Below, piece after piece: positions 1,648 through 63,292 of a stretch of DNA of 64,000 bases (the stretch's first letter is position 1; each line of letters begins with the position of its first letter). The translations under genes were made by a program, and so were the position numbers. The notes below the pieces were generated by a model. The model was given only the letters and a program-made list of their open reading frames with translations, was not told the DNA's origin and made no database searches. The DNA comes from an uncultured Gammaproteobacteria bacterium. Lineage in GTDB: Bacteria > Patescibacteriota > Patescibacteriia > Magasanikbacterales > GWA2-37-8. The stretch covers positions 174,335 through 238,334 of the forward strand of contig CAYHBZ010000001.1 in assembly GCA_964355175.1 (NCBI GenBank). Direction: 5' to 3'.

Positions 1648-3822
1648 CTATTCGTCAATTTTATCCACTTGTCCGGATTTAAGTATTTTTGGCTTATGTT
1701 CGGGTGCTGGTTTTGGTTCAGAAGAATTAATTTCCGGCATTGCATATACTCGTACCGGCTTTTCTACTACCTGAGACGCGGGAGGGGTATATGATTTTTT
1801 ATCTTCATCTAGTGATAGGGGTGGTGGTGGACTGACAGGGGCTTTTGGAACTACAGGTTGTGTTGGATTCACCGGCGGTTGTGTCTGGTGGCGAGGCTCT
1901 ATGGTCGATGACTTAGATTGTTGAGGTGATTGTAAGGCGCTCAGAGATATTCCTTTTTGTTGTGTATCCACTATCGCCACTGGTGCGCTTTGATTGGGGT
2001 TGCCAAAATTTTGTCCCCCTTTATTTCTTTTTCTCTTTCTTTTACCACTACCAGACTGACCTGATTGGCCTGGCTGACCGGCGGGACGCTGCTGCATCTG
2101 ACTACCAGATGATGGCTGATTATTTGCTACCGGACGCACTACAGCGGAAGTGTGATGCGTGGTGGGCACTACTCTTGGTGCTGGATTGGACGGAGCGGGC
2201 GCAGGAATTGCCGGAAGTACATTGATATTATTTTCAATCACCACAATATTTTGCATCGGTTCGGCTACTGGAGCAGGAGCGACCGAAGCTGGGGCGGGAG
2301 CTGACTGTGGTGTTGGTTTAGGCTCTGCTGGTTTTGGAGCAGGCGGTGGAGTGCTAGGCGGTGGTGTAGGTTTGGTAGCAGCTGGCGGCGGAGTTTTGGC
2401 CACTGGTTTTTCTACTGGTTTTTTATCTTTTGGAAATTCCGCAAACATTGAATCTTCATCATCTACTTCCAGCTGAGCGGCTTCATCGCCTGGAATAATC
2501 ACCATACCGCTCCAACGCGCAATTTTATCTTCGATCTTTTCTCTGTTTACAGCGTAGCGTTCACGCGACACACGCACCACTTTTTCCATACTGCCGGTGG
2601 CCTGCGCGATAGGAGCCATAGTGAGCGCGCTAAACGGACGACTGGCCACACCATCAATCATTAATTTAAGATAGATATGAAACTTTGGCAGATTGATAAG
2701 ATCTTCTTCGACAAAAGTAGGAATAAATTCTTTGGCCAAAATTTCGGCATCACTGGATCCTACACGAAAAGTTACGATAGTACCCACGTTACCAATTACA
2801 GCCGCTAATACTTCTTCTTCGAGCTGTTCCATATATTGGTGAGCCATCGTGAGGTCCAAGCGATATTTACGGGCTTCAGATAAAATATTAGCAAAAGATT
2901 CAGTCGCAAAATTTTGAAATTCATCTACATACAAAAAGAAATCTTTACGCTCAGTTTCAGGCGTATCTACGCGCTCCATGGCGGAGAGCTGAATTTTGGT
3001 GATAAGCATACCGCCAAGCAGACGCGAATTATCTTCACCAATTCTGCCTTTACTGAGGTTCATGATGAAAATCTTTTTCTCATCCATGATCTCGCGAATA
3101 TTAATACGAGATTTTACCTGCGCTACGATATTACGAATCACCGAAGCTGATAAAAATTGACCAATTTTATTTTGGATAGGAGCTACGGCTTCTTGTTTAT
3201 ATTTATCATTGTACGAAGCAAACTCTGTCTGCCAAAAAGCTTTTATTACCGGATCCTGAGTATTATTCACTACGCGGCGGCGATATTCTTCGTCGGCGAG
3301 CAATCTATTAATACCCAAAAGAGTGGTGCCGGGAAAATCCAAAAGCGCCAAAATAGTATTATTTAAAATGTATTCCATTCTTGAGCTCCAAACATCCGGC
3401 CAAATTTTCTTGAACACACCCATCAAACCAGAAGCTACTAAATGTTTTTGATCCGGACGAATGGTTTCCAAAATATTAAAGCCGATTGGATAATCCAAAT
3501 CGGACGGATTGAAATATACCACATCATTGATGCGGTTGGCTGGAATATAATTGAGAATTTTTTCAGCGGTGTCACCATGTGGATCTACATAGCCCAAGCC
3601 ATGGCCGGCATAGATATCGTTGAGCACCATGTTTTCCAGCAAAGTAGTTTTGCCCATACCGGTTTTACCCACTACATACATATGGCGACGGCGATCGTCG
3701 AGCTTGATACCAAATTTGCGATTTTGATTGCGATAGTTGGCCAAACCAAAAAAATTAACATCGGGATTACCCAGTGGATTATTGGCAGGATCTGTACTTG
3801 GATCTAAAATTAAATCGCTCAT
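1648..3822 (-). CDS. VirD4/TraD/TraG-family P-loop ATPase (type IV coupling-protein-like) with a long Pro/Ala/Ser/Gln-rich C-terminal tail
   Basis: Walker A YVVGKTGMGKTT and Walker B LYVDEFQNF, with overall TraD/VirD4-like layout. No N-terminal TM helices. The last ~300 aa are a low-complexity PAPAP/TPPP tract containing GKRKRKRNKG. The DNA at 1800-2500 is correspondingly GC-rich and repetitive. Confidence 0.6.
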   Translation of the reverse strand: MSDLILDPSTDPANNPLGNPDVNFFGLANYRNQNRKFGIKLDDRRRHMYVVGKTGMGKTTLLENMVLNDIYAGHGLGYVDPHGDTAEKILNYIPANRINDVVYFNPSDLDYPIGFNILETIRPDQKHLVASGLMGVFKKIWPDVWSSRMEYILNNTILALLDFPGTTLLGINRLLADEEYRRRVVNNTQDPVIKAFWQTEFASYNDKYKQEAVAPIQNKIGQFLSASVIRNIVAQVKSRINIREIMDEKKIFIMNLSKGRIGEDNSRLLGGMLITKIQLSAMERVDTPETERKDFFLYVDEFQNFATESFANILSEARKYRLDLTMAHQYMEQLEEEVLAAVIGNVGTIVTFRVGSSDAEILAKEFIPTFVEEDLINLPKFHIYLKLMIDGVASRPFSALTMAPIAQATGSMEKVVRVSRERYAVNREKIEDKIARWSGMVIIPGDEAAQLEVDDEDSMFAEFPKDKKPVEKPVAKTPPPAATKPTPPPSTPPPAPKPAEPKPTPQSAPAPASVAPAPVAEPMQNIVVIENNINVLPAIPAPAPSNPAPRVVPTTHHTSAVVRPVANNQPSSGSQMQQRPAGQPGQSGQSGSGKRKRKRNKGGQNFGNPNQSAPVAIVDTQQKGISLSALQSPQQSKSSTIEPRHQTQPPVNPTQPVVPKAPVSPPPPLSLDEDKKSYTPPASQVVEKPVRVYAMPEINSSEPKPAPEHKPKILKSGQVDKIDE

Positions 3823-4816: not shown

Positions 4817-6943
4817 TTAAAAATTAAATACTTTAATATTTCCAAACTTGGCCAATGGCGTGTTTAGATTATAATCCCCTACTAAATAACAACTATCTGA
4901 CCCTACCCACCCGCGGGCTTCCTTGGTGGCGCGTTCGGGATTGGCAGAGGACAGCGCGAGTAATTGCATTCTCTCAGGCTGACCAAAACTAGAGTCAATC
5001 GGAAAACCGCCGCCCACTACTCTGCGGCCGGAAATCTGTTCCAGCGCCAACAGCGGATAGGTATCGGCCAACACACAAATTTTCTGTCTGCCCTCTTCCC
5101 TATTCCAAACATATTGCATAGCCTCATACTCATTTTTGGAAACCACGCGCGTATCCGGACCAAGCGTATATGAAGCCGCGATAGCGAAAGAGAAAATAAA
5201 AACTGTTAAAAAGATTATTATTTTATTTTTCAAAAAATTATATCCAAAATAAACTGCCGGTAAAATAATTAAAATAGCCAAAGTAGCATCCAACCGACGA
5301 GTGAGTATATTGTCCCCGCTCAAAAAATAGCGCGATATAATATAACCACCAAATACACTGGACGAAAAAATTATCCAAAAATTATTTATTCGACTGTGGA
5401 TCTGCAGCATTTTTTTCAGGCCCAAAATCCAAATGAGCCAAAATGCCAACATGACCAAAACCATCCAGCCGCGCCAGGCGATAAATCCATTGGTAGTAAG
5501 AGCGCTAAGCGGCGGCTGATTGAAAAAAATATTTCCAGTACTGATATCACTAGCACGCAAACCAAACCCTGCGTACCAGCCGCTTAAATTTCCAACCACC
5601 GCTTTGATCTGCGCCCACCAATTTAATTGGTCCTTGAAGGTGGAAAAACCAGATATTAATTCAATAGCCGGTATTGAAAGCATTGTAAAAATACCAACCA
5701 CGAACAAATGATTTTTTGAAAATTTTAATCTTAACAAATTTATTAAAACAAAAGCCAGCCAAAATAAAACAAAAAATACCGTATGAGTAAAGATGGACAA
5801 GACACCGAGGATAATTAAAAATACCGCACCCCCATCCGTGGGTTTCTGACTATTTTTAATAATTAACCACAAACTAAACAACCAAAATAATATTCCCAAA
5901 TTCGCCGGCAAACTAAAACTTCCGCTCACTTGCAGAGCAAACGGCCAAGCCGCTAGCCATACCAAAAATAGAGCGGCTCTTTTTTCTAAATTATAGGCCC
6001 TGGCAATCTCAAATAAAATTATCGGCAAAATTAGTGACCAGATTATCGGCAAAAAATATTTTATAAAAACAATCGGATCCACTTGGCATAATTTCTGAAA
6101 TAGCAAAGACAGCGAATTAAACTGCGCGTAGGCCAGAGAACCAAAATCAAGTTTCTGCCAAAAACCAAGCGGCGCGGAGCTTAAAGATGGAGACACAATC
6201 GCGCCGGACTGCCACCAGCTACTTTCTGTGGCCAGATGACGCCAGCCATCGGCGCCATAAAATAATTCATGACTCAAGGGTAAATAGGCGTGCAATAAAA
6301 ACGCGTGAATAATTAACAAAAATAAAATCGTGCCGGCTTTTAAACGAGAAAAGATCAATAGTCCCAAAATTAAAGTCGCGGCAAAAAATGCCAAAATAAA
6401 TTCTGGCGATATTGTCTGCCACGGCGTCATTAAAACAGCGCTACTTTTACTTTTATACAATAAATAAAAAGCAACCGCCACAATTGCCAAATACAATATT
6501 ACTCCCGCTTTGCTGGTTGGCAATTCTTCTATCACTTCTTTGTTTTGATCTTCAATCTCGGCCGCTTCTTCCACCCTATGACTATATTGTTTTAAATATC
6601 CAAAAAATAATCCTGTGATAAAAGTGCCGATAGCCAAAGCAAATCCAGACATTGTGTAAATTAAAGCGACCGCTCCGACCACGCTTCCCCAGACACACAA
6701 TACCAAAAAAATAGCGACTACTCGAATTCGGAAACTTGCCGACACACCAAAATATTGTCGCAAAAATTTATGGGCAGACGAAGCAAAATATAGACAAAAG
6801 CTCACCAAAACAAGCCAGCCGACAGTGGCGCTGTGCCAAAAAAGTATATTTATTAGAGTAAAAAATGACCAAGTCAGGGCAAGCGTAGCCTCCTTAAATA
6901 AAGACAGTTTGTTCATATGGTCTCTATTATAACAAAATACCAA
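4817..6943 (-). CDS. Large polytopic membrane protein (>12 predicted TM helices), possibly GT-C-fold glycosyltransferase-like
   Basis: Long hydrophobic segments run throughout the ORF, with a ~120-aa soluble C-terminus. No definitive catalytic motif recognised (WWQSG only loosely resembles the oligosaccharyltransferase WWDYG motif). Start may be at the internal MNKLS (6916). Confidence 0.5.
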   Translation of the reverse strand: MVFCYNRDHMNKLSLFKEATLALTWSFFTLINILFWHSATVGWLVLVSFCLYFASSAHKFLRQYFGVSASFRIRVVAIFLVLCVWGSVVGAVALIYTMSGFALAIGTFITGLFFGYLKQYSHRVEEAAEIEDQNKEVIEELPTSKAGVILYLAIVAVAFYLLYKSKSSAVLMTPWQTISPEFILAFFAATLILGLLIFSRLKAGTILFLLIIHAFLLHAYLPLSHELFYGADGWRHLATESSWWQSGAIVSPSLSSAPLGFWQKLDFGSLAYAQFNSLSLLFQKLCQVDPIVFIKYFLPIIWSLILPIILFEIARAYNLEKRAALFLVWLAAWPFALQVSGSFSLPANLGILFWLFSLWLIIKNSQKPTDGGAVFLIILGVLSIFTHTVFFVLFWLAFVLINLLRLKFSKNHLFVVGIFTMLSIPAIELISGFSTFKDQLNWWAQIKAVVGNLSGWYAGFGLRASDISTGNIFFNQPPLSALTTNGFIAWRGWMVLVMLAFWLIWILGLKKMLQIHSRINNFWIIFSSSVFGGYIISRYFLSGDNILTRRLDATLAILIILPAVYFGYNFLKNKIIIFLTVFIFSFAIAASYTLGPDTRVVSKNEYEAMQYVWNREEGRQKICVLADTYPLLALEQISGRRVVGGGFPIDSSFGQPERMQLLALSSANPERATKEARGWVGSDSCYLVGDYNLNTPLAKFGNIKVFNF

Positions 6944-17418: not shown

Positions 17419-19035
17419 TTATTTTTCTATAGGCCTACTTATTTGTATTATTGCTTCTTTTCCTAATTTTTTAGTTCCAACTCTTATAAAATTACCTGCG
17501 TCTCCCATTTGCACCCAGGCTATATGTTCAACCGGATCTTTCCATCCTAAAAATAGAGCCGAATGTGTTCCTGGACAATATGAGTTCCAATTAACAATCA
17601 TATAATAATCTCCTGGCTGTAATTCATTTATCCAATTTGGATCCCATTTGCCTGTATCCTTTAATATACTAACTAATTTTTCTGTAGCTAAGTCAGGATT
17701 TATAAAACATGCTTCTGGCCATATTTTTTTTGTGCATTTTGCATCGCAAGACATCCCTCTTGTAAGTTGCGTTACAGCCAACCCTCCTCCGTAATTTGTT
17801 TTGAGGTTAGTTACATCATGCAATATTTTCTTTGGAGCATATTTTGTGTTGTTTCCGACCGAATTGCACGCTATGCTAGTTTTAGTATTTTTAGCATGTT
17901 GTAGACATTTAGCACTATCTCCATAAGAACCGCCGGTTGCGGAGACTAAAGCATATACGTTCGTTGTACCGACTCCGCAGTTTTCGTATTGAATTTGACA
18001 TTGGGCAGCGGCTTCAGATGCCATAGCCACTCTCTGACTCACCGAACCTTTTAAAATTTGTTGAGTTACCATTTTTTCATGAAATTCCAATCTTCTCGGA
18101 ATGTTTTTTGAGATTTGGTTAACTCTTGGCTTTTTTTTCAAATCAGGTATCAAACTAATCGTATCATCTGCAAAATTAATAGGTTGAGTAAGATCGACCG
18201 GACATTTAGTAAAATACTTAAATTGGCCAGGGGAACCTTCCCCAGCGGCAGCGTCTGCTAAATCGCTAGCAGTCAGACTCTCTGTTTGGGGAATTTCTTC
18301 AAAATATTCTACTTTCAGCGCTTGAAAATTTACCAAAGTAGGATTCACAATACTAAGTATGGTGAAAGACCCCCAACCTATAAAAAGACCAACAACAATC
18401 TGACCTATACGTTTAAAACCTTCTGCTTTTGCTTCACCACCACCAACTATAATCTTGACACCTGTGGTAATAATCATGACAACCGCAATAATACTAATCA
18501 CAACTAAACCAACTTTATAAGCGGCCGCAATATATTCACCAATATAGGGAATATTAAGATAAGTTTTACCATTTTCCTGGGTAACCGTACTGCTCGAAAG
18601 TTTGCTAAAATTTAAACCAGGAATATTGATCATCAACTTCGGCTCTTTTATACGCAAATCTATTTTTATATCCGTAAAACCAACCGTACCACCCTTATCA
18701 AAATTTTCTTTACCTACCGCATCAAGATAACAACGGTTGTTCAAACAAGCCTGACCACCTTCTTGGGTACTATATCCGGTACAATCTTCGGCCACATTGC
18801 ATTTTTTATCTACAAAGACACAATCATCACCGTTTTCACATTCTGTAGAAAGACAATAATAACTACCATCTGAGTCTTTGACACCTCCACCCTGAAAAGC
18901 ACTGCAAGCGTCCAATCCAAGACAGCCGAGCTTGGAACAGCCACTTACTTTTTCAGAATCAATAATCGCGTTAGCCTGTTTTGGGAGAATAAAAAAACTT
19001 AATAATAAAATAATAAAAATTTTTCTCCAAAACAT
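17419..19035 (-). CDS. Secreted/membrane-anchored Cys-rich protein with a possible C-terminal cysteine-peptidase-like (NlpC/P60 or CHAP-like) domain
   Basis: Signal peptide (IFIILLLSFFILPKQANA). Cys-rich N-terminal module (CSKLGCLGLDAC...CLSTECENGDDC). Internal TM (LVVISIIAVVMIITTGV). C-terminal PGDYYMIV...THSALFLGW loosely resembles the His-containing half of papain-like amidases. Function not established. Confidence 0.45.
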   Translation of the reverse strand: MFWRKIFIILLLSFFILPKQANAIIDSEKVSGCSKLGCLGLDACSAFQGGGVKDSDGSYYCLSTECENGDDCVFVDKKCNVAEDCTGYSTQEGGQACLNNRCYLDAVGKENFDKGGTVGFTDIKIDLRIKEPKLMINIPGLNFSKLSSSTVTQENGKTYLNIPYIGEYIAAAYKVGLVVISIIAVVMIITTGVKIIVGGGEAKAEGFKRIGQIVVGLFIGWGSFTILSIVNPTLVNFQALKVEYFEEIPQTESLTASDLADAAAGEGSPGQFKYFTKCPVDLTQPINFADDTISLIPDLKKKPRVNQISKNIPRRLEFHEKMVTQQILKGSVSQRVAMASEAAAQCQIQYENCGVGTTNVYALVSATGGSYGDSAKCLQHAKNTKTSIACNSVGNNTKYAPKKILHDVTNLKTNYGGGLAVTQLTRGMSCDAKCTKKIWPEACFINPDLATEKLVSILKDTGKWDPNWINELQPGDYYMIVNWNSYCPGTHSALFLGWKDPVEHIAWVQMGDAGNFIRVGTKKLGKEAIIQISRPIEK

Positions 19036-21141: not shown

Positions 21142-22758
21142 ATGCTCAAAATATTAAATTCTCAATCCAAGACCATTACCGGAGCGGCTATTATTTTATC
21201 GGGCGCTACTTTGCTGTCTCGTTTTGTGGGCGTGGCGCGCGATCGTGTATTGGCTCATTATTATGGAGCGGGACCAGTGATGGATGCCTATTATGCCGCT
21301 TTCAAAATTCCGGACATAATTTATAATTTATTAATTGTAGGAGCACTTACCGCTGGATTTATCCCTACTTTTACAAAATTGCTCAACAATAGAAATGAGA
21401 ATAAAGAAGCGTGGCAACTGACCAATAATATTTTGAATATTTTGGGCATATCCTTAATTGTATTGTGCGGACTAGGAATAATTTTTACTCCGATTCTAAA
21501 TAAAATCTTGGCTCCAGGATTTGATGCTGAAAATTTGAGGCGCGTGACGGCTTTTACCAGAATAATGTTTTTGTCTCCCTTGTTTCTGGGCATATCCATG
21601 CTAATGGGCGGCGCTCTACAATCTCTGCGTCGTTTTGTACTATACGCTATTGCGCCAATTTTTTATAATTTCGGTATTATTTTTGGCGCCACGGTATTGG
21701 TGCGCATGATGGGAGAAAATGGCCTGGCCTACGGCGTGGTGCTAGGCGCTTTTATACACTGTGCTATACAGGCCTATGGCACCTACCACTCTGGTTGGCG
21801 CTATGCTTTTTCTTTTAATACCAAAGATATCGACACCAAAATGGTATTTAAATTAATGGTGCCGCGTACCATGGGGCTAGCAATTACCCAACTAAATCAA
21901 GTGGTGGTGACAATGATGGCTTCATTTTTACCAATCGGCAGTATTGCGGTTTATAACTACGCCAACAATTTGCAGGCTGTGCCAATTGGGGTGCTGGCTA
22001 TTCCTTTCGCGCTGGCAATCTTCCCACTCTTCTCCGAAGCTGCCGCCCAAAAAGATATAGATTTATTTGTGAATCATTTTAGTTCGGTAGTGCGACAAAT
22101 TTTATTTTTGATTATCCCGTCCACTATTTTAATTTTACTTTTACGCGCCCAAATAGTACGCGTAATTTTGGGTAGTGGAGAATTTGATTGGAATGCCACG
22201 GTTAGCACTGCTGACGCGCTCGCCTGTTTCGCCCTGGGATTAGTGGCTCAGTCTCTGATTCCAGTTTTATCACGCGCCTTTTTTGCTTTTTCCAACACCA
22301 AAACTCCATTTGTAATCGGAGTGATATCCGAATTAATTAGCATCATCGCCGCTTTGCTCCTGATGCGTCCTTTGGGAGCGGCCGGATTGGCACTAGCCAG
22401 CTCAATTGGTGTGACCATAAATTTAATTCTACTTTGGATAAATTTACGCACTGAAACAAAAACTTTGGGAGAACGCCAAATTTTACCAATGGTACTACAA
22501 GTAACGGCCGCCAGCTTTGTAATGGGTCTGATTGTTCAGCTACTGAAATATCCTTTGGCAAAATTATTTAATCAACAATTTTTTTGGGGTATCTTTGGCC
22601 AAGGATTATTTGCCGGCGGATTTGGTCTTTTGTTTTACGGACTGGCCTGCTACTTTTTGCAAGTACCGGAATTTATGCAATTAAAAAATAGTTTTCAACG
22701 ACGCTGGCTAAAGATACAGAACCTAAACGCCACTGAAATTATCCAGAATAAAGAATAA
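21142..22758 (+). CDS. murJ: Lipid II flippase MurJ (MviN)
   Basis: 14-TM MOP-superfamily protein with MurJ hallmarks (SRFVGVARDRVLAHYYGAG, DAYYAAFKIPD). Confidence 0.85.
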   Translation: MLKILNSQSKTITGAAIILSGATLLSRFVGVARDRVLAHYYGAGPVMDAYYAAFKIPDIIYNLLIVGALTAGFIPTFTKLLNNRNENKEAWQLTNNILNILGISLIVLCGLGIIFTPILNKILAPGFDAENLRRVTAFTRIMFLSPLFLGISMLMGGALQSLRRFVLYAIAPIFYNFGIIFGATVLVRMMGENGLAYGVVLGAFIHCAIQAYGTYHSGWRYAFSFNTKDIDTKMVFKLMVPRTMGLAITQLNQVVVTMMASFLPIGSIAVYNYANNLQAVPIGVLAIPFALAIFPLFSEAAAQKDIDLFVNHFSSVVRQILFLIIPSTILILLLRAQIVRVILGSGEFDWNATVSTADALACFALGLVAQSLIPVLSRAFFAFSNTKTPFVIGVISELISIIAALLLMRPLGAAGLALASSIGVTINLILLWINLRTETKTLGERQILPMVLQVTAASFVMGLIVQLLKYPLAKLFNQQFFWGIFGQGLFAGGFGLLFYGLACYFLQVPEFMQLKNSFQRRWLKIQNLNATEIIQNKE

Positions 22759-22764
22759 AAAGAT

Positions 22765-24585
22765 ATGAAAGAAAATATGAATGAACACTTAAGAAATTTT
22801 TGTATTATCGCCCACATTGATCACGGTAAATCCACCTTGGCCGACAGATTTTTGGAAGTCACCGGCACGGTTTCCAAACGCGATATGAAAAATCAGTTGC
22901 TTGATTCCATGGATCTAGAACGCGAACGCGGTATTACTATCAAGCTGACACCAGTACGCATGCCATACACCCTTGATGGAGAAAAATATATTCTTGATTT
23001 GATTGATACTCCGGGACATGTGGACTTTAATTACGAAGTATCCCGCTCACTAGCCGCGGTAGAAGGCGCGGTATTGCTCGTGGATGCCACTCAGGGTGTG
23101 CAGGCACAAACTATCGGCAATCTATACCTGGCTATTGATCAAAACCTTACTATTATTCCGGTAATCAATAAGATCGACTCCCCGGCCGCCAATATTGAAA
23201 AAACTCAGGCGGAAATTATTCATTTGCTTGGCTGTGCCCCGGAAGATATTATTTTGGCTTCCGGCAAAACCGGCCAAGGTGTTGAAGAAATCCTCAAAGC
23301 GATTGTCAAAAAAATTCCTGCTCCACAAGATAACAATAGTGCCGCTCCCCGCGCCTTGATTTTTGATTCTTCTTATAACGAATTCAAAGGTGTAGTGGCC
23401 TCGGTGCGTATCACCGATGGTGAAATAAAAAAAGGAGATAAGATTTATCTCATGACGACTCAGACTCCGGCCGAAGTTTTGGAGCTGGGATATTATACTC
23501 CCAAATTTCATCCGGCCACTATTTTAAAAAATGGCGAAATTGGATATATTGTTACCGGTCTAAAAGAAGTGCGCGACTGTCGTGTGGGTGACACTATCAC
23601 TGCTCTAAATTCTGAAAAAACCGGCGTAGCGAAAGAATCTTTACCAGGCTATAAAGAAGTAAAGCCAATGGTATACGCCGGTATTTTCCCAAACGAAGGT
23701 GACGGATATGAACAGCTACGCGATGCGATCGACCGTCTGAAACTCAGTGACTCGGCTTTGATCTATGAACCGGAACATTCTCAGGCTCTGGGTTTTGGTT
23801 TCCGCTGTGGATTTTTGGGCATGTTGCATCTGGATATTTTCCAAGAACGCTTGAAGCGTGAATTTAATTTGGAAGTGGTGATCACCGTCCCAAGCGTGGC
23901 CTACAAAATAGAAAAAACCAACGGTGAAAAATTTACTATTCACAGCCCACAAGAGATGCCCGAACCAAATCACGTCACCGAAGTAGCCGAACCTTGGATG
24001 ACTCTCGATATTATTACTCCACAAGATTATGTCGGTAATGTGATGGGCCTAATCTCCGAACGCCGCGGACGCTATGTGAATACCGAGTATTTGAGTACCG
24101 GCAGTGATCAGCGCGCGCTTTTGCATTATCAAATTCCTTTGGCCGCTTTGGTCACGGATTTTTATGATAAATTAAAAACCGTTACTTCCGGATATGCTTC
24201 CATGAATTACGAGCTAATCGGCTATGAAAAAACCGATGTGGTAAAAATAGAAATTTTGGTTGGCGAAGAACCAGTAGAAGCTTTGGCCACTCTAGTATGG
24301 CGCGAAGACGCTTATCATATTGGCAAAAAAATCTGCGAATCACTCAAAGACAGTCTGCCTCGCCAACAATTTGAATTAAAAATTCAAGCGGCTATTGGCG
24401 GCAAAGTGATTGCTTCCGAACGCCTAGGCGCTCTACGCAAGGATGTTATTGCCAAATTATACGGTGGTGATGTCACTCGCAAAATGAAACTGCTTGAAAA
24501 ACAAAAGAAAGGTAAAAAACGCATGATGGCCCACAGCAAAGTGGATATTCCACCGGAGGCTTATTTGGCCGTATTAAAAAGATAA
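22765..24585 (+). CDS. lepA: Elongation factor 4 (LepA)
   Basis: G-domain motifs AHIDHGKST, DTPGH, NKID and the unique LepA C-terminal domain. Confidence 0.95.
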   Translation: MKENMNEHLRNFCIIAHIDHGKSTLADRFLEVTGTVSKRDMKNQLLDSMDLERERGITIKLTPVRMPYTLDGEKYILDLIDTPGHVDFNYEVSRSLAAVEGAVLLVDATQGVQAQTIGNLYLAIDQNLTIIPVINKIDSPAANIEKTQAEIIHLLGCAPEDIILASGKTGQGVEEILKAIVKKIPAPQDNNSAAPRALIFDSSYNEFKGVVASVRITDGEIKKGDKIYLMTTQTPAEVLELGYYTPKFHPATILKNGEIGYIVTGLKEVRDCRVGDTITALNSEKTGVAKESLPGYKEVKPMVYAGIFPNEGDGYEQLRDAIDRLKLSDSALIYEPEHSQALGFGFRCGFLGMLHLDIFQERLKREFNLEVVITVPSVAYKIEKTNGEKFTIHSPQEMPEPNHVTEVAEPWMTLDIITPQDYVGNVMGLISERRGRYVNTEYLSTGSDQRALLHYQIPLAALVTDFYDKLKTVTSGYASMNYELIGYEKTDVVKIEILVGEEPVEALATLVWREDAYHIGKKICESLKDSLPRQQFELKIQAAIGGKVIASERLGALRKDVIAKLYGGDVTRKMKLLEKQKKGKKRMMAHSKVDIPPEAYLAVLKR

Positions 24586-24603: not shown

Positions 24604-24699
24604 ATGAAACATAAGACAATAAAAAATCTCTGGACTGTAGTAGCTATAATCGGCATTATTGCCATGATTATGTTTACAATTTTGCCATTATTTCAATAA
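24604..24699 (+). CDS. Possible 31-aa single-TM micropeptide (MKHKTIKNLWTVVAIIGIIAMIMFTILPLFQ)
   Basis: ATG-initiated small ORF in the lepA-downstream spacer encoding one hydrophobic helix. Below the ORF-track length cutoff; no homology evidence. Confidence 0.25.
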   Translation: MKHKTIKNLWTVVAIIGIIAMIMFTILPLFQ

Positions 24700-24709
24700 T
24701 CAAAAATTT

Positions 24710-25099
24710 GTGAAAGTTCTTCGCCAATATCAGCTGGATATTATTTTTCTATTTTTAGCTATCCTATTTATTCTGTGGGCATTTTTTTACGCGCTCAAAT
24801 ATCTGGGTGTGGACGCGCACGAATATGAATGGTTTGCGGCTTTACCCCTGATCGCTTTCTATTTGATATATATGCTCAAAATGCGCGACCGAATTTCTAT
24901 TTCCGATCGCCGCGCGATGACCACCAAATCAATGATTTATTGGATAGTGCTCGGCATTTCACTTTTTACTTCCTACGCCACCCCTATCGCCGCCCGAGAT
25001 TACTGGTCACTAAACGCGCTGTATTTAATATTTACCCTGCTATTGGCCGATTCATATTGGGATTTCAAAAAGATGACACTCAAAGATTTAAAAAAATAA
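24710..25099 (+). CDS. Hypothetical 4-TM membrane protein
   Basis: GTG-initiated hydrophobic ORF; no family recognised. Confidence 0.4.
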   Translation: MKVLRQYQLDIIFLFLAILFILWAFFYALKYLGVDAHEYEWFAALPLIAFYLIYMLKMRDRISISDRRAMTTKSMIYWIVLGISLFTSYATPIAARDYWSLNALYLIFTLLLADSYWDFKKMTLKDLKK

Positions 25100-25100
25100 T

Positions 25101-26306
25101 ATGTCTGAAACACCACGCCACTTATCATTTGAAAAAATCGACCACTCCACGGATCGTGGCACCCAGGAAATCCAGGGCTTTTTTCAAGACGCTGATTCCG
25201 TGCCGGCCAAAATGGTAAAAAATTATGCTAAAGAAATTGCGGACAGAATTAATACAGCACAATCCCCGGATGAGCAAAAAATATTTTTAATAGATTTGCT
25301 CAGAGAAGATGCTTTGGAAAAAATAATTCAAACCAAGGGTAAAGCGGAAGGATTTTCGCAAGAAGATCTGGAAGATGTGAAAAAAATGACCAAATCTTCT
25401 GTCAAACAAATTAGACAAGCAGTGGCTGAAGAACTGAAAAAATATTTGCCGGAAGATTTATATTTTTTTATTAAAAAATATGTATCGCCAGAACTGGAAA
25501 GCCACAACCAAAGACTCTCTATAGAAAATACCCGCGGTGAACTATTTCTAAAAACTAACGACCGCTATTCCCATGATATTAGCGATAATTTAAAAATAGG
25601 TTTAGAGATGCTAAAAACTGCCATGGACGGTCTAGATGATCCGGACAAAGAAATGCCTTTCATCCCCCATCTCCTTATCACCAACCGCCCAAAAAACTTG
25701 GATCGGCAGGTGGCGTTTGGCGTGGCTCCAAAAAATATTCTTACGATCCAAGAAATTTTTGAAGATAAAGGCAATAATTTTTCTGATAGAGAAAAAATAC
25801 AGGCAGTAGTGGATTGCGTAAAAGGAGCTAAATTTTTAGCTGACAATGGACTCACTCTTACTGACCTGGATACCAAAGATCCTGGTCGTAATATTGGTAT
25901 TGATATAGATACAAAAAAAGGGATTCTATTTGATTTGGATGGTTTAATGCCTGCTAATACTCAGATATCGGCTATGTTAGCCGCCATGGACCAAGGAAAA
26001 CCAATGAAAGAACTTATTGCGCCGGAATATCAAGGACTATCTACCGGTCAAAATATTATTTCACGCAAAGAATCCATGATCTGGGAATTGGGCGACACTA
26101 TTTATCGCTTGGCCAAAAATCAAGAAGATGAGTTGTACAAATCACCAAATTTCTTTTCTCAGCAAAACCTAGTTTCAATGTGGGAAAAATTAAGAGAATT
26201 TAGCGAAAAAATGAGGGCTCAAAAACCGGAAGATCGCCCATCTTTTGATGTTTGTATTACAAAATTAGAAGGTATTATAAATAAATATTTACCGGAAAAC
26301 AAATAA
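25101..26306 (+). CDS. Eukaryotic-like protein-kinase-like domain protein (atypical, divergent)
   Basis: C-terminal half has kinase-like ordered motifs. LTLTDLDTKDPGRNIGID resembles the HRDLKPxNI catalytic loop. LFDLDGL resembles DFG. APEYQG resembles the APE motif. RPSFDVC resembles the kinase C-lobe RPSF. No clear glycine loop seen. Confidence 0.4.
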   Translation: MSETPRHLSFEKIDHSTDRGTQEIQGFFQDADSVPAKMVKNYAKEIADRINTAQSPDEQKIFLIDLLREDALEKIIQTKGKAEGFSQEDLEDVKKMTKSSVKQIRQAVAEELKKYLPEDLYFFIKKYVSPELESHNQRLSIENTRGELFLKTNDRYSHDISDNLKIGLEMLKTAMDGLDDPDKEMPFIPHLLITNRPKNLDRQVAFGVAPKNILTIQEIFEDKGNNFSDREKIQAVVDCVKGAKFLADNGLTLTDLDTKDPGRNIGIDIDTKKGILFDLDGLMPANTQISAMLAAMDQGKPMKELIAPEYQGLSTGQNIISRKESMIWELGDTIYRLAKNQEDELYKSPNFFSQQNLVSMWEKLREFSEKMRAQKPEDRPSFDVCITKLEGIINKYLPENK

Positions 26307-26310
26307 ACTT

Positions 26311-28092
26311 ATGTCAAAAAAATGGATAGTCGCTCCGGCCGTACCAGAAGAATTTTTTACCGAGCATCCTGAATTGCCACCAATAGTGGCCCGCCTGATG
26401 TACAATCGCAATTTGCGCACCCAAAAACAAATTGATGAATTTTTGAATCCGGATTATTCACAAGATATTCACGATCCGTTTTTGTTTGTGGATATGGAAA
26501 AAGCGGTCAAAATTATTTTTGATTGCATTGCCGCTAATAAAAATATTGTAGTACACGGCGACTACGATGCCGACGGTGTCTGCGCTTCTACTATTATTAT
26601 CAGCTGTTTGAAAAAAATGGGCGCGCAAAATGTGTCGGTATTTCTCCCCCATCGTGAAACCGATGGTTATGGACTAAATCTCAATACCGTCCGCGCGCTC
26701 AAAGAAAAAAATACTGATCTCATTATTACTTGTGACTGCGGTGTCAGCAATACGGCCGAAGTAAAATTGGCCAAAGAGCTTGGCATGCAGGTAATTATTA
26801 CGGACCACCACTCTATCCCCGCTCAGACTCCACCGGCTGATGCCATTATCCATCCGAAAATGCCAAATGAAAAATATCCAGATAAAACTTTATGCGGTGG
26901 TGCCGTCGCTTTCAAACTCATCCAAGCCCTTTTAAAAACTCACAAAAAAACCAACGCTCTACTCTCTGACGGACAAACCCACGAAGCCTTTGAAAAATGG
27001 CAATTGGATTTGGCCGCAATTGCCAGTATTGGCGACATGGTGCCGCTACTAGGAGAATCTCGCACTATCACCCGCTATGGTCTCACCGTGCTAAACAAAA
27101 CAAAAAATTTAGGTCTAAAAAAACTAATGTTTGTTTCCGGTATTATCGATGAAAACGGACAACAGAAACGCGGCGAGATCACTGCCGGCACAGTGGGCTT
27201 TCAAATTGTACCGCGCATCAACGCCGCCGGACGCATGGATCATGCCAATGTCGCCTTTGCCCTATTGATGAGCGAAGATGAACACGAAGCGGAAAATCTA
27301 GCCTGGGCACTAAACCAAAACAATCTTGATCGCCAAAAATTAACCGAAAATTTAGTGGCGCAAGCGATAAAACAAGTAAAAGAAAGTGAACAAGAAAAAA
27401 ATAGCGCCATCTTTGTATTGGGCGAAGGCTGGCCTACCGGAATTTTGGGTCTTATTGCCGGACGCCTCAAAGATATGTACTACAAACCGGCGATAGTAAT
27501 GGGATTAAACCATGGCGAAATTACGGCCTCTGGACGCAGTATTTCCGAATTCAATATGGTCGCCGCCATTCAAAATAATTCCGAATTTTTTGCGAAATTC
27601 GGCGGTCATCCTCAGGCTTGTGGCTTCACTCTGAAATCACTGGATGTACTTGAAGCTTTTAAAAAGAGATTCAACGAGGTGACGGCTGAGCAAACCAAGG
27701 AAGTAGAACTGGTACCACAGATAAATATTGACGCCGAAGTTGATCTCGCTGATATCAGCTGGACCCTTTATGATCTACTACAAAAATTCGCCCCCTTTGG
27801 CATGAACAACGAAGAGCCAAAATATGTCGCGCGCGGACTGACCATTACTGGTATTACTCCTGTCGGCCAAGATGGCAAACACCTCAAGCTAATGCTCAAA
27901 CACAATTCCCACGTTGTCCACAAAACTATCGGCTTTGGACTTGGTGACATTAATCGCCACAAAGACGATTGGAAAAATAATCTGCACGTGGGTGATAAAA
28001 TTGATATGGCTTTCTGTGTAGAAGCCAATGAATGGAATGGCAACCGTGAATTGCAAATGACTATCTCGGATATAAAAAAGAGCGATCAATAG
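26311..28092 (+). CDS. recJ: Single-stranded-DNA-specific exonuclease RecJ
   Basis: DHH motifs (VVHGDYDADGV, DHH at ITDHHS), DHHA1 region and C-terminal OB-like domain; 593 aa. Confidence 0.9.
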   Translation: MSKKWIVAPAVPEEFFTEHPELPPIVARLMYNRNLRTQKQIDEFLNPDYSQDIHDPFLFVDMEKAVKIIFDCIAANKNIVVHGDYDADGVCASTIIISCLKKMGAQNVSVFLPHRETDGYGLNLNTVRALKEKNTDLIITCDCGVSNTAEVKLAKELGMQVIITDHHSIPAQTPPADAIIHPKMPNEKYPDKTLCGGAVAFKLIQALLKTHKKTNALLSDGQTHEAFEKWQLDLAAIASIGDMVPLLGESRTITRYGLTVLNKTKNLGLKKLMFVSGIIDENGQQKRGEITAGTVGFQIVPRINAAGRMDHANVAFALLMSEDEHEAENLAWALNQNNLDRQKLTENLVAQAIKQVKESEQEKNSAIFVLGEGWPTGILGLIAGRLKDMYYKPAIVMGLNHGEITASGRSISEFNMVAAIQNNSEFFAKFGGHPQACGFTLKSLDVLEAFKKRFNEVTAEQTKEVELVPQINIDAEVDLADISWTLYDLLQKFAPFGMNNEEPKYVARGLTITGITPVGQDGKHLKLMLKHNSHVVHKTIGFGLGDINRHKDDWKNNLHVGDKIDMAFCVEANEWNGNRELQMTISDIKKSDQ

Positions 28093-47906: not shown

Positions 47907-50900
47907 TCAAAATGACTGTGAAAACCATCCTGGCGGACTCCAATAAGTATTAACGTTGATAAAATTACGGGTATCCATATTAGTCAGATTTAATTGTGGA
48001 AATGGATTAGCCGATCCGGCCATAATACCTTCGGTAAGATTGTAGAAGAAACTATTATCCACTGACAGTGCCCCGGTATTCACCTGGACTCCTTTTATAG
48101 TTGGGAAAAAAGTATTTTTAGAAGTATAACCAAGCGAAGTATTATTTAAATTAACTGTAGAACTATTTATTTGAATTATTTCTACCGGCAAACGATTGTC
48201 TATTAGCTGGCAATTTTCCAAAGTAACCTGCGAATTATTATTGACAGAAATTACACCCTTGTAACTATCTCCGGGAGAATTATAACCACCACCGGAAAAA
48301 TTGACTGAATTTAAATTTCCTACACCACCATCAAAAACTAAATGACCCCAATATTTATTTAAACCTGTCGGGCCTACAAATTTTATAGGCTCATCAACCG
48401 TGCCGTTTAAAGTGAGAGTACCTTTGATGAAAATATTAGAAAATTGTGGCAGATAAAAAGATGCCCCTTTGTCCGCTGCCAAACTACCTCCGGCTTCAAT
48501 AGTAACATTTTCCAAATTAATAGGGATACTAGTTCCCACAACGACTGAAGAAGTGATAGTCGCCATGGCGATATTTACCGCACCATTGGCACTATTGGAA
48601 AAACTAATAACATCAAGAAGGCGTGGCCAAATATTTTTAACGTAAATAGCGCCGGTAGGGTTAGAAAAATTATCTACTGTAATATTTTCTAAACTTAATT
48701 GTCCGCCGTAATGCTCGATAGCGGTAATGCCATTTTTAAAATTAGTACTATTAATAGAAGATTTGGAATTAATTTCATAAATAATTGTATCGCCGTCATC
48801 AACAAAATCTGAGCCACTAATATTTAAGCTAGCGCTATCGGCATATATTGCTTCAGAAACAGGCAGCTGTGATGAATTAAGATTCGGGGCGCGGAATTTG
48901 GCTCCGGCGTAACTCATTTCCAAACCCTTTAAATCCCCTTTTGATCCGGGATAAAACATCAATCCTTGCCAGGACTTGGACAATTTATTATCTGACGTCA
49001 TGATAACTTTTTGAGAGGGCGAACCAGAGGTATTTAAAGTGCCTTTGATCTCAATTTTTGAATTAGGATAATAGGCTTTTACAACAGCACCTTCTTCTAT
49101 GCTAAGAATTTTGCCGGCCGGCACTTCATAGTAAGTTAAGATATATGGATAATCACTCTTTTTCAGAGTGCGCTCGACATCTACCTGAGTCGCGCGTAAC
49201 ACAATTGATCCAAAATTAGATTGTTTTGGTGAACCATTTAAGGGTAAAGCATCGCCACCACCATCTACCTTACCGGCGAGGCGCGGACCCTGGTTGGTTT
49301 GCCAATTATTTGAAAGATTGCCAGATAAAGTAGAGTTAATCTTTTCCATGGATGAATATGTTGTCGCCGATCCGGCAAACCATCCGGCTGAAGAATTTAA
49401 TTCATCCACCAAATTATTTTGACTATCAAATAATTCCAGACGCGTTCCACTATTGGACAAACTGCCAGAATAAATAAGGTCGCCGTCAATTTCATTGACC
49501 GTACGATTATCAGGATTTTCCAGCAGGTAATAACCGTGCGCCGGTATGGTGGAATTATTTATTTTATTTATATTTATTTCTTGACCGGCAATTTTTAGTT
49601 TCCATCTTTTCTGAATGTTGGTAGTGGAAAATAATTCTATATCTTGATTAGTATTGTTATAAAGCTCAATATACTCATCTTCAGAAGTGAATTGTGAGGT
49701 GCCAGCCCAAGCGACTTCATTTATGACAACGTCAGGAACTACGACAGGCGCAGTTTCAACAGTGGAAGTGACAACTGTGGTAGTGTTGGATACAGTGGTA
49801 GTGACTACTTCGGTAGTGGAGGTGACAACAGTAGAGGTGGTAGAAGTAGTAAATGAATCTAAATTTTCTATCTGGTCTGGAATAGTGGATGTGCTGAAAA
49901 TAGTAGACGTAGTATCAATTTCAGGTTCGGTTGAAGTTGTGGAAGTTGGAGATATTATTAAATCTGATGGATCTGGAGTAGTCGAGGTTGAAGTGGTGGT
50001 AGAAGTGGTGGTATCTGGAACATCAGAATTCGTCGATGTGGTTGAGGTGTCACTAGAGGATGATTCACTGGTTGTGGTAGGAGCAGAGACATTACTGTCT
50101 TCGGTAGAGGTAGTGCTGACAGGAATAGTGACAGTAGGAAAAGCACTAGAAGTATTTTCTGAATTAGATAAATTTGTATTAACCACAGGGCTGGCCGAAC
50201 CACCACCTCCGCCACTTGTTGCTGGGAAGTTCGAGGTAGCACGAGGAGTAGTAATTATTTCATTGGTTGTTATAGGTCTGTCATTTGGCAATTCTGGCAC
50301 GAAACTGACAGGATTAGATTGGTCTGAATTTTTCAGTGTAGATGGGGTTTGGGAAGCAACATTCTGAGATATTGGAATTTTTTTATTTATACTCTTGCCG
50401 ATATTTTCTATCTTACTCACTATAGCATCGGTGGTTTTATTTAATGACTGCGTTACAGTTTGAGTCAGCACTCCACTGCTGGTATCGGCTTGAGACGCAT
50501 TACCTTTATAAATATTCTCAGCGACATTAATTACGGCACCACCGAGACTATTTACCAGACCACCAAGATTACTTCTAAAAAAAGGCAGTTTTTCTGTTTG
50601 ATTTTTCTGAGTTTCGTCGAGGAATAATTTTATGGTACCGGCGCTGTAGGCGACTGCTTTGGGGAGGAGGTGGTGAGCATAGTCGGACAACACAAGGTCC
50701 TCATTCAATATTTTATGATTACTTTTTTTCCAATCAGATCCGTCCGTTGCATAAAGACTAAAAAATTCTTGATCTATCTTACTCTGAATTAAAAACATCT
50801 TATCATATTTTGTTTTTATTTCTAACACCTTATCTACGCTGTTAATTTTATAATTTTTATCTTCAATAGTATCATCACTATAAAAATTATTATTAGAATA

Positions 50901-63281: not shown

Positions 63282-63292
63282 ATAAGAATTTA

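Follow-up and report, generated by a model that had tools for sequence, protein, structure and literature searches.

Does an unannotated gene of a CPR bacterium encode a protein kinase, and could such a kinase still carry out phosphotransfer? CPR bacteria have minimal genomes, most of their signaling and conflict biology has yet to be worked out, and literature searches on Hanks-type kinases in CPR/Patescibacteria returned nothing relevant to the topic. The gene under study lies in a 64,000-nucleotide stretch of patescibacterial DNA (the window), and a preliminary description had read it as a divergent, eukaryotic-like kinase from four short motifs.

Here we describe an unannotated family of eukaryotic-type kinases in CPR bacteria, the close clade of which has been missed by standard annotation. 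The family is new and well supported; its fold is a very familiar one, and it does not amount to a new kind of system. The explanation that we favor, to which we give roughly two chances in three, is that the gene is an accessory, fast-diversifying one that encodes a divergent, active Hanks-type kinase with an N-terminal module. The family shows, as an experiment of nature, to what extent a kinase active site can be remodeled while its Asp/Asn/Asp core stays in place.

A tightly packed gene in a housekeeping array

The kinase-like gene (25101..26306, + strand) is a complete ATG-to-TAA reading frame of 401 aa in the ORF list. As the preliminary description had it, the gene stands between membrane genes and recJ, all on the + strand: murJ (21142-22758), lepA (22765-24585), and an ORF for a hydrophobic protein of 129 aa that apparently crosses the membrane several times (TM129; 24710..25099) lie upstream, and recJ (26311..28092) begins 4 nt past the kinase stop codon. 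TM129, which has one window above the Kyte-Doolittle threshold of 1.6 and more hydrophobic stretches by eye, ends 1 nt before the kinase ATG. The neighborhood of the kinase comprises murJ, lepA, recJ, ytxH, and glycosyltransferases. Neither a second family member nor a dnaG-rpoD-murG array was found within the window. At a distance of 21 kb from the kinase gene, and with no link to it, lies the gene for a VirD4/TrwB-like coupling protein.

An identical protein is already on record, on a contig of 953,736 bp, and there are 25 close homologs; the family as a whole comprises about 190 clusters at 50% identity, 191 representatives being found at E<=1e-3. Members of the close clade carry no precomputed Pfam domain and are called 'hypothetical protein' in every source that gives a name. 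This missing annotation, together with missing direct profile matches, is all that favors a chance ORF or decaying pseudogene over a functional gene, a reading that is effectively refuted by full-length homologs with invariant motifs (25 close clusters, about 190 distant ones), by a confident structure prediction for the 401-aa protein, by a dN/dS for the gene that is well below 1, and by conservation of the 1-nt upstream junction in 6/6 loci where gene or ORF calls show it. The gene is real and looks expressed, with both of its ends fitted closely against same-strand neighbors.

We asked whether TM129 serves the kinase specifically, as its partner or anchor, and rejected the idea: homologs of the ORF form at least 121 clusters, with identity of 50% or more, so that it is far more widely distributed and better conserved than the kinase, and it is also found in murJ-lepA-TM-recJ arrays that contain no kinase at all (L014-L016). 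Given this wider distribution and these arrays, TM129 is a neighbor rather than a dedicated partner.

Domain organization and homology to Hanks-type kinases

The protein divides into two modules. Residues 118-397 (25452..26291, +; about 280 residues) form a Hanks-type (ePK-fold) kinase domain, for which the predicted model is bilobal, with a five-stranded N-lobe plus alphaC and a helical C-lobe. From alphaF onward the model has three helices (324-347, 351-371, and 382-396) where four are expected, and 48 residues separate the alphaF Gly from the subdomain XI Arg, against 55 in PKA. The GHI subdomain (alphaG, alphaH, and alphaI) may accordingly be remodeled. Ahead of the domain stands a family-specific module of a beta-hairpin and four helices (residues 1-117; 25101..25451, +), which was absent from the preliminary description and for which no known counterpart was found. 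The maximum 19-residue hydropathy is 0.89, with no TM segment, and the protein is predicted to be soluble and cytoplasmic.

Direct searches fell short of a kinase match. The 401-aa protein alone produced only noise against Pfam, NCBIfam, and PDB sequences (UPF0172, E=0.003; ribosomal uS15, about 0.3); it matched no Pfam kinase family even at E<=10, nor did it reach the gathering score of PF00069 or PF07714. The close-clade profile (A1) had nothing significant among PDB sequences (natterin-like, 0.009; JAK2, 0.48), and the best close-clade member scored 22.4 bits on PK_Tyr_Ser-Thr, for which the cut-off is 23.1. Pfam Pkinase was matched by 36 of 104 relatives. Three sister-clade (A4) members, P0037 (42.9 bits), P0030 (41.7), and P0039 (40.3), as well as another distant member, P0032 (35.0), score above its gathering score of 31.7. 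Profile A1 retrieves P0030 at E=9e-31, and hhalign of A1 against A4 gives 99.95% probability (E=5.6e-38, 340 columns). Because the close clade aligns to a sister clade whose members exceed the Pkinase gathering score, homology to Hanks-type kinases is supported transitively. The hhalign comparison of A1 with a single PknB sequence was weak (E=0.029, probability 1.7%) and was used for register only. A metagenome scan with profile A4 recovered only four loci.

The kinase fold, the homology to Pfam Pkinase via intermediates, and the near-invariant phosphotransfer residues are all in evidence, and the 401-aa protein is almost certainly a kinase-fold homolog. The kinase reading of the preliminary description is thus upheld for residues 118-397. 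That description had named two outcomes that would speak against a kinase, and they diverged: the bilobal fold is predicted, but the 401-aa protein itself matches no kinase profile. Its four motifs, placed in the 'C-terminal ~200 aa', do occur in the order given, but they occupy the last ~150 residues of a domain of about 280.

A conserved catalytic core

Conservation was assessed in 24 close homologs and in 104 relatives that share about 20% identity; outside the catalytic residues, identity per column across the family is only about 13%. The catalytic loop, LTDLDTKDPGRNIGID (25857..25904, +), contains the counterparts of the HRD Asp (Asp255, 25863-25865) and of the catalytic-loop Asn (Asn264, 25890-25892), each present in 103/104 relatives and corresponding to PKA D166 and N171, respectively. 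Its register was set from the 'QDLKPEN' of L009, from hhalign against PknB, and from hhalign of A1 against A4, which has a 4-residue gap. Relatives carry canonical 'DLKPEN' or 'DIKPEN' loops, with the Asn at D+5 in most of the family; the D+9 spacing of the close clade results from a clade-specific 4-residue insertion in the loop.

The DFG surrogate, D278-L-D280-G (25932..25943, +), aligns to the DFG of PknB. Its Mg-binding D278, the counterpart of PKA D184, is found in 104/104 relatives, while the Phe position varies among L, F, Y, and I, and the Gly position (280) is acidic in 95/104 (D in 65, E in 30). The APE motif, APEYQG (26019..26036, +), closes a 32-residue activation segment (D278-E309) with Glu309, present in 90/104 relatives. 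Within a model helix (324-347) lies the alphaF motif ESMIWELG (26070..26093, +), corresponding to W-[SA]-x-G of ePKs; its Gly331 is kept in 102/104 relatives, and its position 328 is W, Y, or F in 103/104. The subdomain XI motif RPSFDVC (26235..26255, +), which the model places between its final two helices, supplies Arg379 (96/104). Both residues that would form the ePK-hallmark Glu-Arg ion pair, as defined previously (PMC3415842), are present as Glu309 and Arg379; the APE-Arg pair and the alphaF W-[SA]-x-G separate ePK/PknB kinases from ELKs (PMC1821047, PMC3415842). Among the 24 close homologs, D255, N264, D278-L279-D280, P308-E309-Y310, R379-P380, and F382 are invariant.

The putative beta3 ('VAIK') lysine is Lys151 (25551..25553, +), within a predicted strand (146-153); its likely equivalence to PKA K72 depends on an inferred register, on which the edge of the Pfam match is ambiguous. 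Lys occupies this position in 24/24 close homologs, and the 104 relatives have either Lys (79) or Arg (25).

The motifs quoted in the preliminary description (LTDLDTKDPGRNIGID, DLDG, APEYQG, and RPSFDVC) all lie at the coordinates checked here, and their conservation in 24 close homologs and in 104 relatives distinguishes them from chance strings. Of the catalytic Asp and Lys, whose conservation it had proposed to examine, Asp255 proved highly conserved, and the Lys is replaced by nothing but Arg at position 151. Column entropy is 1.0 from alphaE through the catalytic loop to DFG and 2.5 in the activation loop; the catalytic core is under purifying selection, as seen in this entropy and in a dN/dS of 0.11-0.19, a range of rough values.

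A remodeled nucleotide-binding site

Around this core, several standard features are altered or missing. No conserved Gly of a Gly-rich loop GxGxxG (PKA G50/G52/G55) was found between predicted beta1 and beta2 in either close or distant members, where the region is gap-rich and polar. Predicted alphaC (158-176) has no conserved acidic position equivalent to PKA E91; among distant members, those that come nearest have E at position 166 (32/91) and E/D at position 169 (30/91). The His and Arg of HRD are absent, the sequence being L253-T254-D255 here and L-[QTE]-D across the family, so that the catalytic loop is of the non-RD configuration. The alterations to HRD and to the glycine loop that had been noted earlier are both borne out. 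Of ten residues that unify kinase-like families (Kannan et al., PMC1821047), five are missing or unconserved (the equivalents of G52, E91, H158, H164, and D220).

Predicted activity

The residues retained point to an enzyme that is most likely an active non-RD phosphotransferase, not a pseudokinase. ATP-Mg would be bound between the kinase lobes, and the gamma-phosphate would be transferred, most probably to Ser/Thr of protein substrates. With neither an HRD Arg nor a conserved activation-loop acceptor, the kinase may be constitutively competent. Its ATP site would be remodeled, lacking the Gly-rich loop and a conserved alphaC Glu and having four extra residues in the catalytic loop and Asp280 at DFG+2; this acidic residue, together with the N-terminal module, possibly makes up for the absent elements. 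Judged from its sequence, the 401-aa protein is probably catalytically active, and the chances that its substrate is protein Ser/Thr are about even.

Two alternatives bear on this proposal. The fold might be kept for binding or allostery in a pseudokinase or scaffold that carries out no phosphotransfer, as the absence of the Gly-rich loop and of a conserved alphaC Glu, the replacement of the HRD His and Arg by L-T-D, and the position of the 401-aa protein below every kinase profile threshold would all allow. The same may be said of the beta3 Arg in place of Lys in 25/104 members, since Lys-to-Arg at beta3 is the classical kinase-dead mutation of canonical kinases. However, the catalytic Asp, the DFG Asp, the catalytic Asn, and position 151 (K or R) are 99-100% conserved, and the block from the catalytic loop through DFG is the best conserved of the protein; such invariance of the catalytic site would be hard to account for if no chemistry took place there, which makes a pseudokinase unlikely. 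Pseudokinases are usually recognized by loss of the beta3 Lys, the catalytic Asp, or the DFG Asp, and all three are kept in the 24-member clade, the sole departure being the Arg at position 151 in those 25 distant members. The protein might instead be active on a small-molecule or lipid-linked substrate, or in another nucleotide-dependent transfer such as AMPylation. A D-[LF]-[DE]-G motif in place of DFG, the lack of the Gly-rich loop, the alphaC Glu, and the H158/H164/D220 network, and the position of family members next to murG or near murJ would be compatible with such chemistry; choline and aminoglycoside kinases have motifs of the D-F-E / D-L-G type, which serve here as a lead only. The elements that set the family apart from these enzymes are described below, and we consider alternative chemistry quite improbable.

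Comparison with known kinases

Among the closest known kinases are the bacterial Hanks-type Ser/Thr kinases, for example Mycobacterium tuberculosis PknB (kinase domain, 1mru), Xanthomonas PknS (9eed), and Corynebacterium PknG (7mxk). In contrast to these, the 401-aa protein lacks GxGxxG and a conserved alphaC Glu, has L-T-D for H-R-D and D-L-D-G for D-F-G, and possesses a 4-residue insertion between Asp and Asn as well as its own 117-residue N-terminal module. Unlike PASTA/PknB-type sensor kinases, it ends four residues past the kinase domain, with no TM and no Pfam PASTA match. The top structural matches of the model are IRAK1 (6bfn), IRAK4 (8dks), ScRIPK (8ho6), and an FLS2-like kinase (8jup), at 10-13% identity, but the protein has neither the death nor the LRR domains of IRAK/RIPK/plant receptor-like kinases. 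What is shared with them is the generic ePK fold, with no evidence for a specific evolutionary link. Compared with the Legionella Dot/Icm effector kinases LegK1 and LegK4, the protein has no specific sequence relationship to them and no evidence of secretion.

With the ELKs (choline/aminoglycoside kinases), the family shares a degenerate nucleotide-binding loop and a D-x-[DE] acidic residue. ELKs, however, are described as devoid of the APE motif, of the Glu-Arg pair, and of an activation segment of this length (PMC3415842, PMC1821047), having instead a short, unregulated activation segment and non-conserved helices after alphaF (PMC3415842), whereas the family has the 32-residue D278-E309 segment, the APE motif, and the pair. 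No ELK is among the listed structural matches of the model.

Patchy presence and rapid divergence

The kinase gene is absent from the murJ-lepA-TM129-recJ array in three sister genomes. Where present, it has the highest dN among 14 shared genes, and kinase identity is 38% where LepA is 97% and RecJ 93% identical. The kinase sequence types are deeply divergent and incongruent with the phylogeny of the flanking genes. One clade stands two to three genes downstream of murJ (6/6 loci) and another immediately upstream of murG (8/8 loci); kinases of the latter, rpoD-murG clade likewise show the excess of rate, and overall the kinase diverges several-fold faster than murG, murJ, rpoD, and recJ. Even between the most closely related sequences available, dS is saturated, which makes dN/dS a rough estimate here and leaves positive selection not demonstrable. 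The absence from sister genomes, the highest dN, and the incongruence with the flanks argue for an accessory, fast-diversifying gene rather than a core regulator, and the gene looks like a rapidly diversifying occupant of one set position among conserved housekeeping genes. The encoded kinase varies at its substrate-facing surfaces and conserves its catalytic core. Fast evolution, patchy presence, and flank incongruence together suggest that it acts at an interface where there is pressure to diversify.

A phage origin was considered and rejected: two scans of viral contigs gave only L023, a false positive that arose from an unrelated ORF of 450 aa with a HAD-phosphatase-like N-terminus ('MKGILFDLDGVLV').

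Possible biological roles

The preliminary description had suggested that, in reduced genomes, kinases of this kind often regulate cell-envelope processes or serve as effectors. PknB-type kinases regulate peptidoglycan synthesis, and a core regulator of envelope synthesis or growth, akin to PknB/StkP, would be in keeping with the proximity of murJ in 6/6 loci and the adjacency of murG in 8/8. Adjacency is weak evidence, though, because CPR genomes pack unrelated housekeeping genes together, and such a role is improbable for a gene that is missing from the array of three sister genomes, that diverges several-fold faster than murG, murJ, rpoD, and recJ, and whose product has no transmembrane segment or PASTA-type sensor. 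A role in conflict, as opposed to housekeeping regulation, is possible but less likely than not; the kinase would act either as a single-gene anti-phage system of the abortive-infection type, like Stk2 or PD-T4-6, or as a host-directed effector of an episymbiont. It would fit the varying presence of the gene among closely syntenic genomes, the highest dN of the array, deeply divergent types at odds with the flank phylogeny, variable substrate-facing surfaces around a conserved catalytic core, and a neighboring gap, between lepA and the mini-ORF, that is a variable slot as well. A precedent is Stk2 of Staphylococcus, a stand-alone eukaryote-like kinase described in abortive infection (PMC6532042). 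Like the anti-phage kinases (Stk2; PADLOC PD-T4-6, MkoA, and MAD6), the family combines a eukaryote-like kinase domain with strain-level presence/absence and fast diversification.

Set against a conflict role are the packing of the gene into housekeeping operons rather than a defense island, the lack of a signal peptide or recognizable secretion signal in the 401-aa protein, the absence of family members from the viral contigs scanned, and a dN/dS below 1 with saturated dS, by which positive selection is not shown. Distant family members match anti-phage PADLOC models weakly (E of 2e-10 to 1e-3), less well than they match generic Pkinase models. The 401-aa protein itself matches none of the PD-T4-6, MkoA, MAD6, and PglW models and has murJ, lepA, recJ, ytxH, and glycosyltransferases as neighbors; with 0 PADLOC matches at E<=0.01, membership in a known defense system was rejected.

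A more specific proposal, which we regard as unlikely, is that these are Patescibacteria-specific, stand-alone conflict kinases, which would either detect infection by phages or target the cell that hosts the episymbiont. They would combine an invariant, re-engineered catalytic centre (no Gly-rich loop or alphaC Glu, interchange of beta3 Lys and Arg, and an acidic DFG+2) with a new N-terminal module that may supply nucleotide contacts and with diversifying substrate surfaces, and their alleles would be exchanged as cassettes by recombination in the flanks (TM129/recJ; rpoD/murG). If activity and substrates are established, the family would add a distinct branch to the kinome of bacteria and offer a way into the interactions of CPR bacteria with phages or hosts.

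The Kinase Gene and Its Genomic Slot

The kinase gene is an ORF of 401 codons on the + strand (25101-26306), with an ATG start and a TAA stop. Its neighbours, named from precomputed Pfam matches on identical or orthologous contigs, are all on the + strand too and are tightly packed: murJ (21142-22758) and lepA (22765-24585) lie upstream, the TAA (25097-25099) of the ORF for TM129, a 129-aa membrane protein, falls 1 base ahead of the kinase ATG, and recJ, by the ORF calls, starts 4 bases past the kinase stop. The placement between membrane genes and recJ in the preliminary description is thus borne out. An identical protein, with no name assigned to it, is already recorded on a contig of 953,736 bp, and the named close homologs, all from Candidatus Magasanikbacteria (CPR/Patescibacteria), are all entered as 'hypothetical protein' and lack precomputed Pfam domains.

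The order TM129-kinase-recJ recurs in all eight sampled loci of the window clade (the window, L004-L008, L021 and L022; L010 and L011, exact matches in every comparison, are counted with L008 and L006), and murJ and lepA are also present in those extending far enough upstream, in some with an accessory gene inserted after lepA. Three sister genomes (L014-L016) carry the array murJ-lepA-TM-recJ with 62-165 nt at the kinase position, so the kinase gene fills a position in this conserved array in a clade-specific manner.

TM129 itself is hydrophobic, apparently multi-pass, and found between lepA and recJ in every examined locus (at 5001-5411 in L014-L016); it has no Pfam or NCBIfam match. Its homologs form at least 121 clusters (identity of 50% or more) across Patescibacteria, which marks it as a CPR membrane protein that is widely distributed and under strong constraint. 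This breadth and its presence in the three kinase-less arrays rule it out as a dedicated kinase partner. Between lepA and TM129 lies a 31-aa hydrophobic mini-ORF, MKHKTIKNLWTVVAIIGIIAMIMFTILPLFQ (24604-24699, + strand), which gene callers call as a gene. Of 11 syntenic loci, 10, the three kinase-less ones included, preserve it with 61-90% identity (the L005 sequence ends before reaching it), and it likely encodes a genuine small membrane peptide. The stretch from lepA to this mini-ORF, with no inserted gene in the window, is a variable slot whose content differs by genome (L007:3652-5500; L010:5005-5511; L016:2414-4767): a NUDIX hydrolase, or a 279-aa membrane protein with a 334-aa ORF, or two small ORFs alongside a cell-wall hydrolase of the Hydrolase_2 type.

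Membership in the Hanks-Type Superfamily

Compared alone with Pfam, NCBIfam and PDB sequences, the window kinase returned only noise and matched no kinase profile, and a profile of its 24-sequence clade found nothing significant among PDB sequences; some of its relatives, however, do pass the gathering score of Pfam Pkinase. With a cut-off of E<=0.001, an exhaustive profile search yielded 191 cluster representatives, the majority 350-430 aa long, most matches beginning near the N-terminus. Among 104 aligned members, 36 match Pkinase and 23 match PK_Tyr_Ser-Thr, and four exceed the Pkinase gathering score of 31.7 bits (42.9, 41.7, 40.3 and 35.0 bits). Profile-profile comparison joins the window clade to the sister clade containing three of these four with 99.95% probability (E=5.6e-38, 340 columns). 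Distant members also give weak generic matches to the MAD6, LanL, LegK1, MkoA and PD-T4-6 kinase domains, in agreement with kinase homology. Fold and homology are established by three independent lines, the profile search and profile-profile comparison among them, and by fold and transitive sequence homology the protein is a member of the Hanks-type (ePK) superfamily. The earlier kinase-like reading, whose four motif strings were confirmed when their positions were checked, is thereby upheld and refined: the evidence supports a kinase that is atypical and probably active, from a family that evolves fast and is restricted to CPR.

Active-Site Residues and Catalytic Competence

Mean column identity among the 104 members is only 13%. 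Invariant in the 24 close homologs are K151, D255, N264, D278-L279-D280, P308-E309-Y310 and R379-P380-x-F382. Of the catalytic Asp and Lys, whose conservation the preliminary description had proposed to check, the Asp holds up across the wider family, with D255 kept in 103/104 members; position 151 is Lys in 79 and Arg in 25. N264 is found in 103/104, D278 in 104/104, G331 in 102/104, R379 in 96/104 and E309 in 90/104. We assign D255 as the HRD Asp, N264 as the catalytic-loop Asn, D278 as the DFG Asp, E309 as the APE Glu and R379 as the subdomain-XI Arg, because relatives whose loops follow the textbook pattern ('QDLKPEN...LFDLDGL...PPE' in locus L009, 'DIKPEN' in others) fix the register, and hhalign alignments support it. 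Asn lies at Asp+5 in most family members, the spacing common to all kinases; the window clade has a 4-residue insertion here ('TDLDTKDPGRN' vs 'QDIKL----SN').

Three features are used to tell ePK/PknB proteins from small-molecule 'eukaryotic-like kinases': a Glu-Arg pair, the APE motif and a motif in alphaF (PMC1821047; PMC3415842). The Glu-Arg pair residues, the APE motif and the alphaF motif, [WYF]-x-x-G, are all present in the family, and distant members also keep the subdomain-IV motif '[HS]-P-N-I-V'. The glycine-rich loop is missing from close and distant members alike, as are, in this family, a conserved alphaC glutamate and equivalents of H158 and D220. The HRD His and Arg are replaced (L-T-D in the window kinase, L-[QTE]-D family-wide); alteration of both this motif and the glycine loop had been correctly noted before. 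The DFG Gly is an acidic residue in 95/104 members, five of the ten residues listed as key by Kannan et al. are kept, and in the structural model three helices instead of four follow alphaF.

Pseudokinases are defined by loss of residues that the window kinase retains. Of the two options offered earlier, pseudokinase or atypical kinase, the latter is the likelier, and by the usual criterion the protein does not count as a pseudokinase. Its conservation peaks between alphaE and DFG, catalytic loop included (mean column entropy 1.0, vs 2.5 in the activation loop), a pattern expected for an enzyme. Inactivity would fit the missing nucleotide-positioning elements and the Arg found at beta3 in one of every four family members; weighing these against the retained catalytic residues and core, we put the probability of catalytic activity at about 0.65. 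Retention of ePK-specific substrate-side features makes protein Ser/Thr an even bet as its substrate. Lacking both the HRD Arg and a conserved activation-loop acceptor (none among the 24 close homologs), it would, from general knowledge of kinases, be a non-RD enzyme independent of activation-loop phosphorylation.

Evolutionary Rate and Incongruence

Between the window and L004, a related locus, LepA is 97% identical, RecJ 93%, the mini-ORF 90% and TM129 80%; the kinases share only 38%. Kinase dN against three relatives (0.19, 0.35 and 0.53) is the highest among all shared genes (recJ, 0.035-0.072), with dN/dS of 0.11-0.19 at saturated dS. Five flanking genes group L004 with the window (its RecJ is 93% identical to the window's vs 81% to that of L008), yet its kinase is closer to that of L008 (59%) than to the window's (41% in this comparison), and the L006 kinase is a third type, 36-40% identical to every other. 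Either allele exchange between lineages or strongly episodic rates may be responsible. Most of the variability falls within regions that in protein kinases are substrate-facing surfaces: the activation loop, the P+1/alphaEF stretch, the hinge/alphaD insert and residues 341-362.

A second clade, 21-25% identical to the window kinase (L012:6001-7191, L013:4348-5541 and L017-L020), has a different, fixed context, dnaG-rpoD-kinase-murG, in 6/6 loci, in several of which the kinase start and stop abut or overlap adjacent genes. It displays the same rate excess: in one comparison DnaG is 94%, RpoD 99%, MurG 93% and a permease 96% identical, and the kinase 76%.

Biological Role and Comparison with Known Kinases

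The proximity of murJ or murG would fit the cell-envelope regulator suggested in the preliminary description, but a core regulatory role is disfavoured by the kinase's dispensability in sister genomes and its fast, incongruent evolution, and we consider an envelope regulator improbable. The same two properties are more typical of conflict or environment-facing interface genes, and a precedent exists in Stk2, an abortive-infection kinase that is eukaryote-like and stand-alone (PMC6532042). A conflict-related kinase is nevertheless unlikely, if less so than an envelope regulator: the protein matches no defence model, scans of viral contigs found no family member, its gene is embedded in housekeeping operons, and the comparisons, being saturated, could not demonstrate positive selection.

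Having neither a TM segment nor PASTA repeats, the window protein is not a PASTA kinase, and its APE-Arg pair and long activation segment set it apart from the ELK small-molecule kinases. Described Hanks kinases, unlike it, possess the Gly-rich loop and alphaC Glu, have H-R-D and D-F-G where it has L-T-D and D-L-D-G, and are without its clade's catalytic-loop insertion and unique N-terminal module. We found no such family in the searchable literature, whose coverage is incomplete. The family is of relevance to bacterial kinomes and CPR biology, and is not a new kind of system.

Additional Observations

The single match on viral contigs (L023) proved a false positive arising from a HAD-like 'GILFDLDGV' motif. 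An unrelated ORF of 450 aa there (L023:5010-6362) begins with MKGILFDLDGVLV, a string that overlaps in sequence with the kinase motif 'KGILFDLDGL' and looks like the DxDGx signature of HAD-type phosphatases; short-pattern searches with this motif therefore pull in false positives. Public MAG records titled 'uncultured Gammaproteobacteria' (L007, L009) and 'Candidatus Udaeobacter sp.' (L015) carry CPR-type arrays or family members, the L007 genes being 64-91% identical to the window's Magasanikbacteria-type array, and are probably taxonomic mislabels or mis-binned contigs.

Elsewhere in the window, three large - strand ORFs (4817-6943, 708 aa; 17419-19035, 538 aa; 60907-62511, 534 aa) have no Pfam match at E<=1e-5. 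A 724-aa ORF (1648-3822, - strand) has matches at E about 1e-7 to TrwB_AAD_bind and T4SS-DNA_transf, both domains of type IV secretion coupling proteins, suggesting an ATPase related to conjugation or DNA uptake. A 1,198-aa ORF (47907-51503, - strand), whose sole Pfam match is the Lamin Tail Domain (E=1.7e-7, slightly under the gathering score), may be a large protein of the cell surface or one involved in adhesion. G+C content is about 0.40 over most of the window, 0.34 in the first 2 kb and about 0.33 in the last 6 kb (58001-64000).
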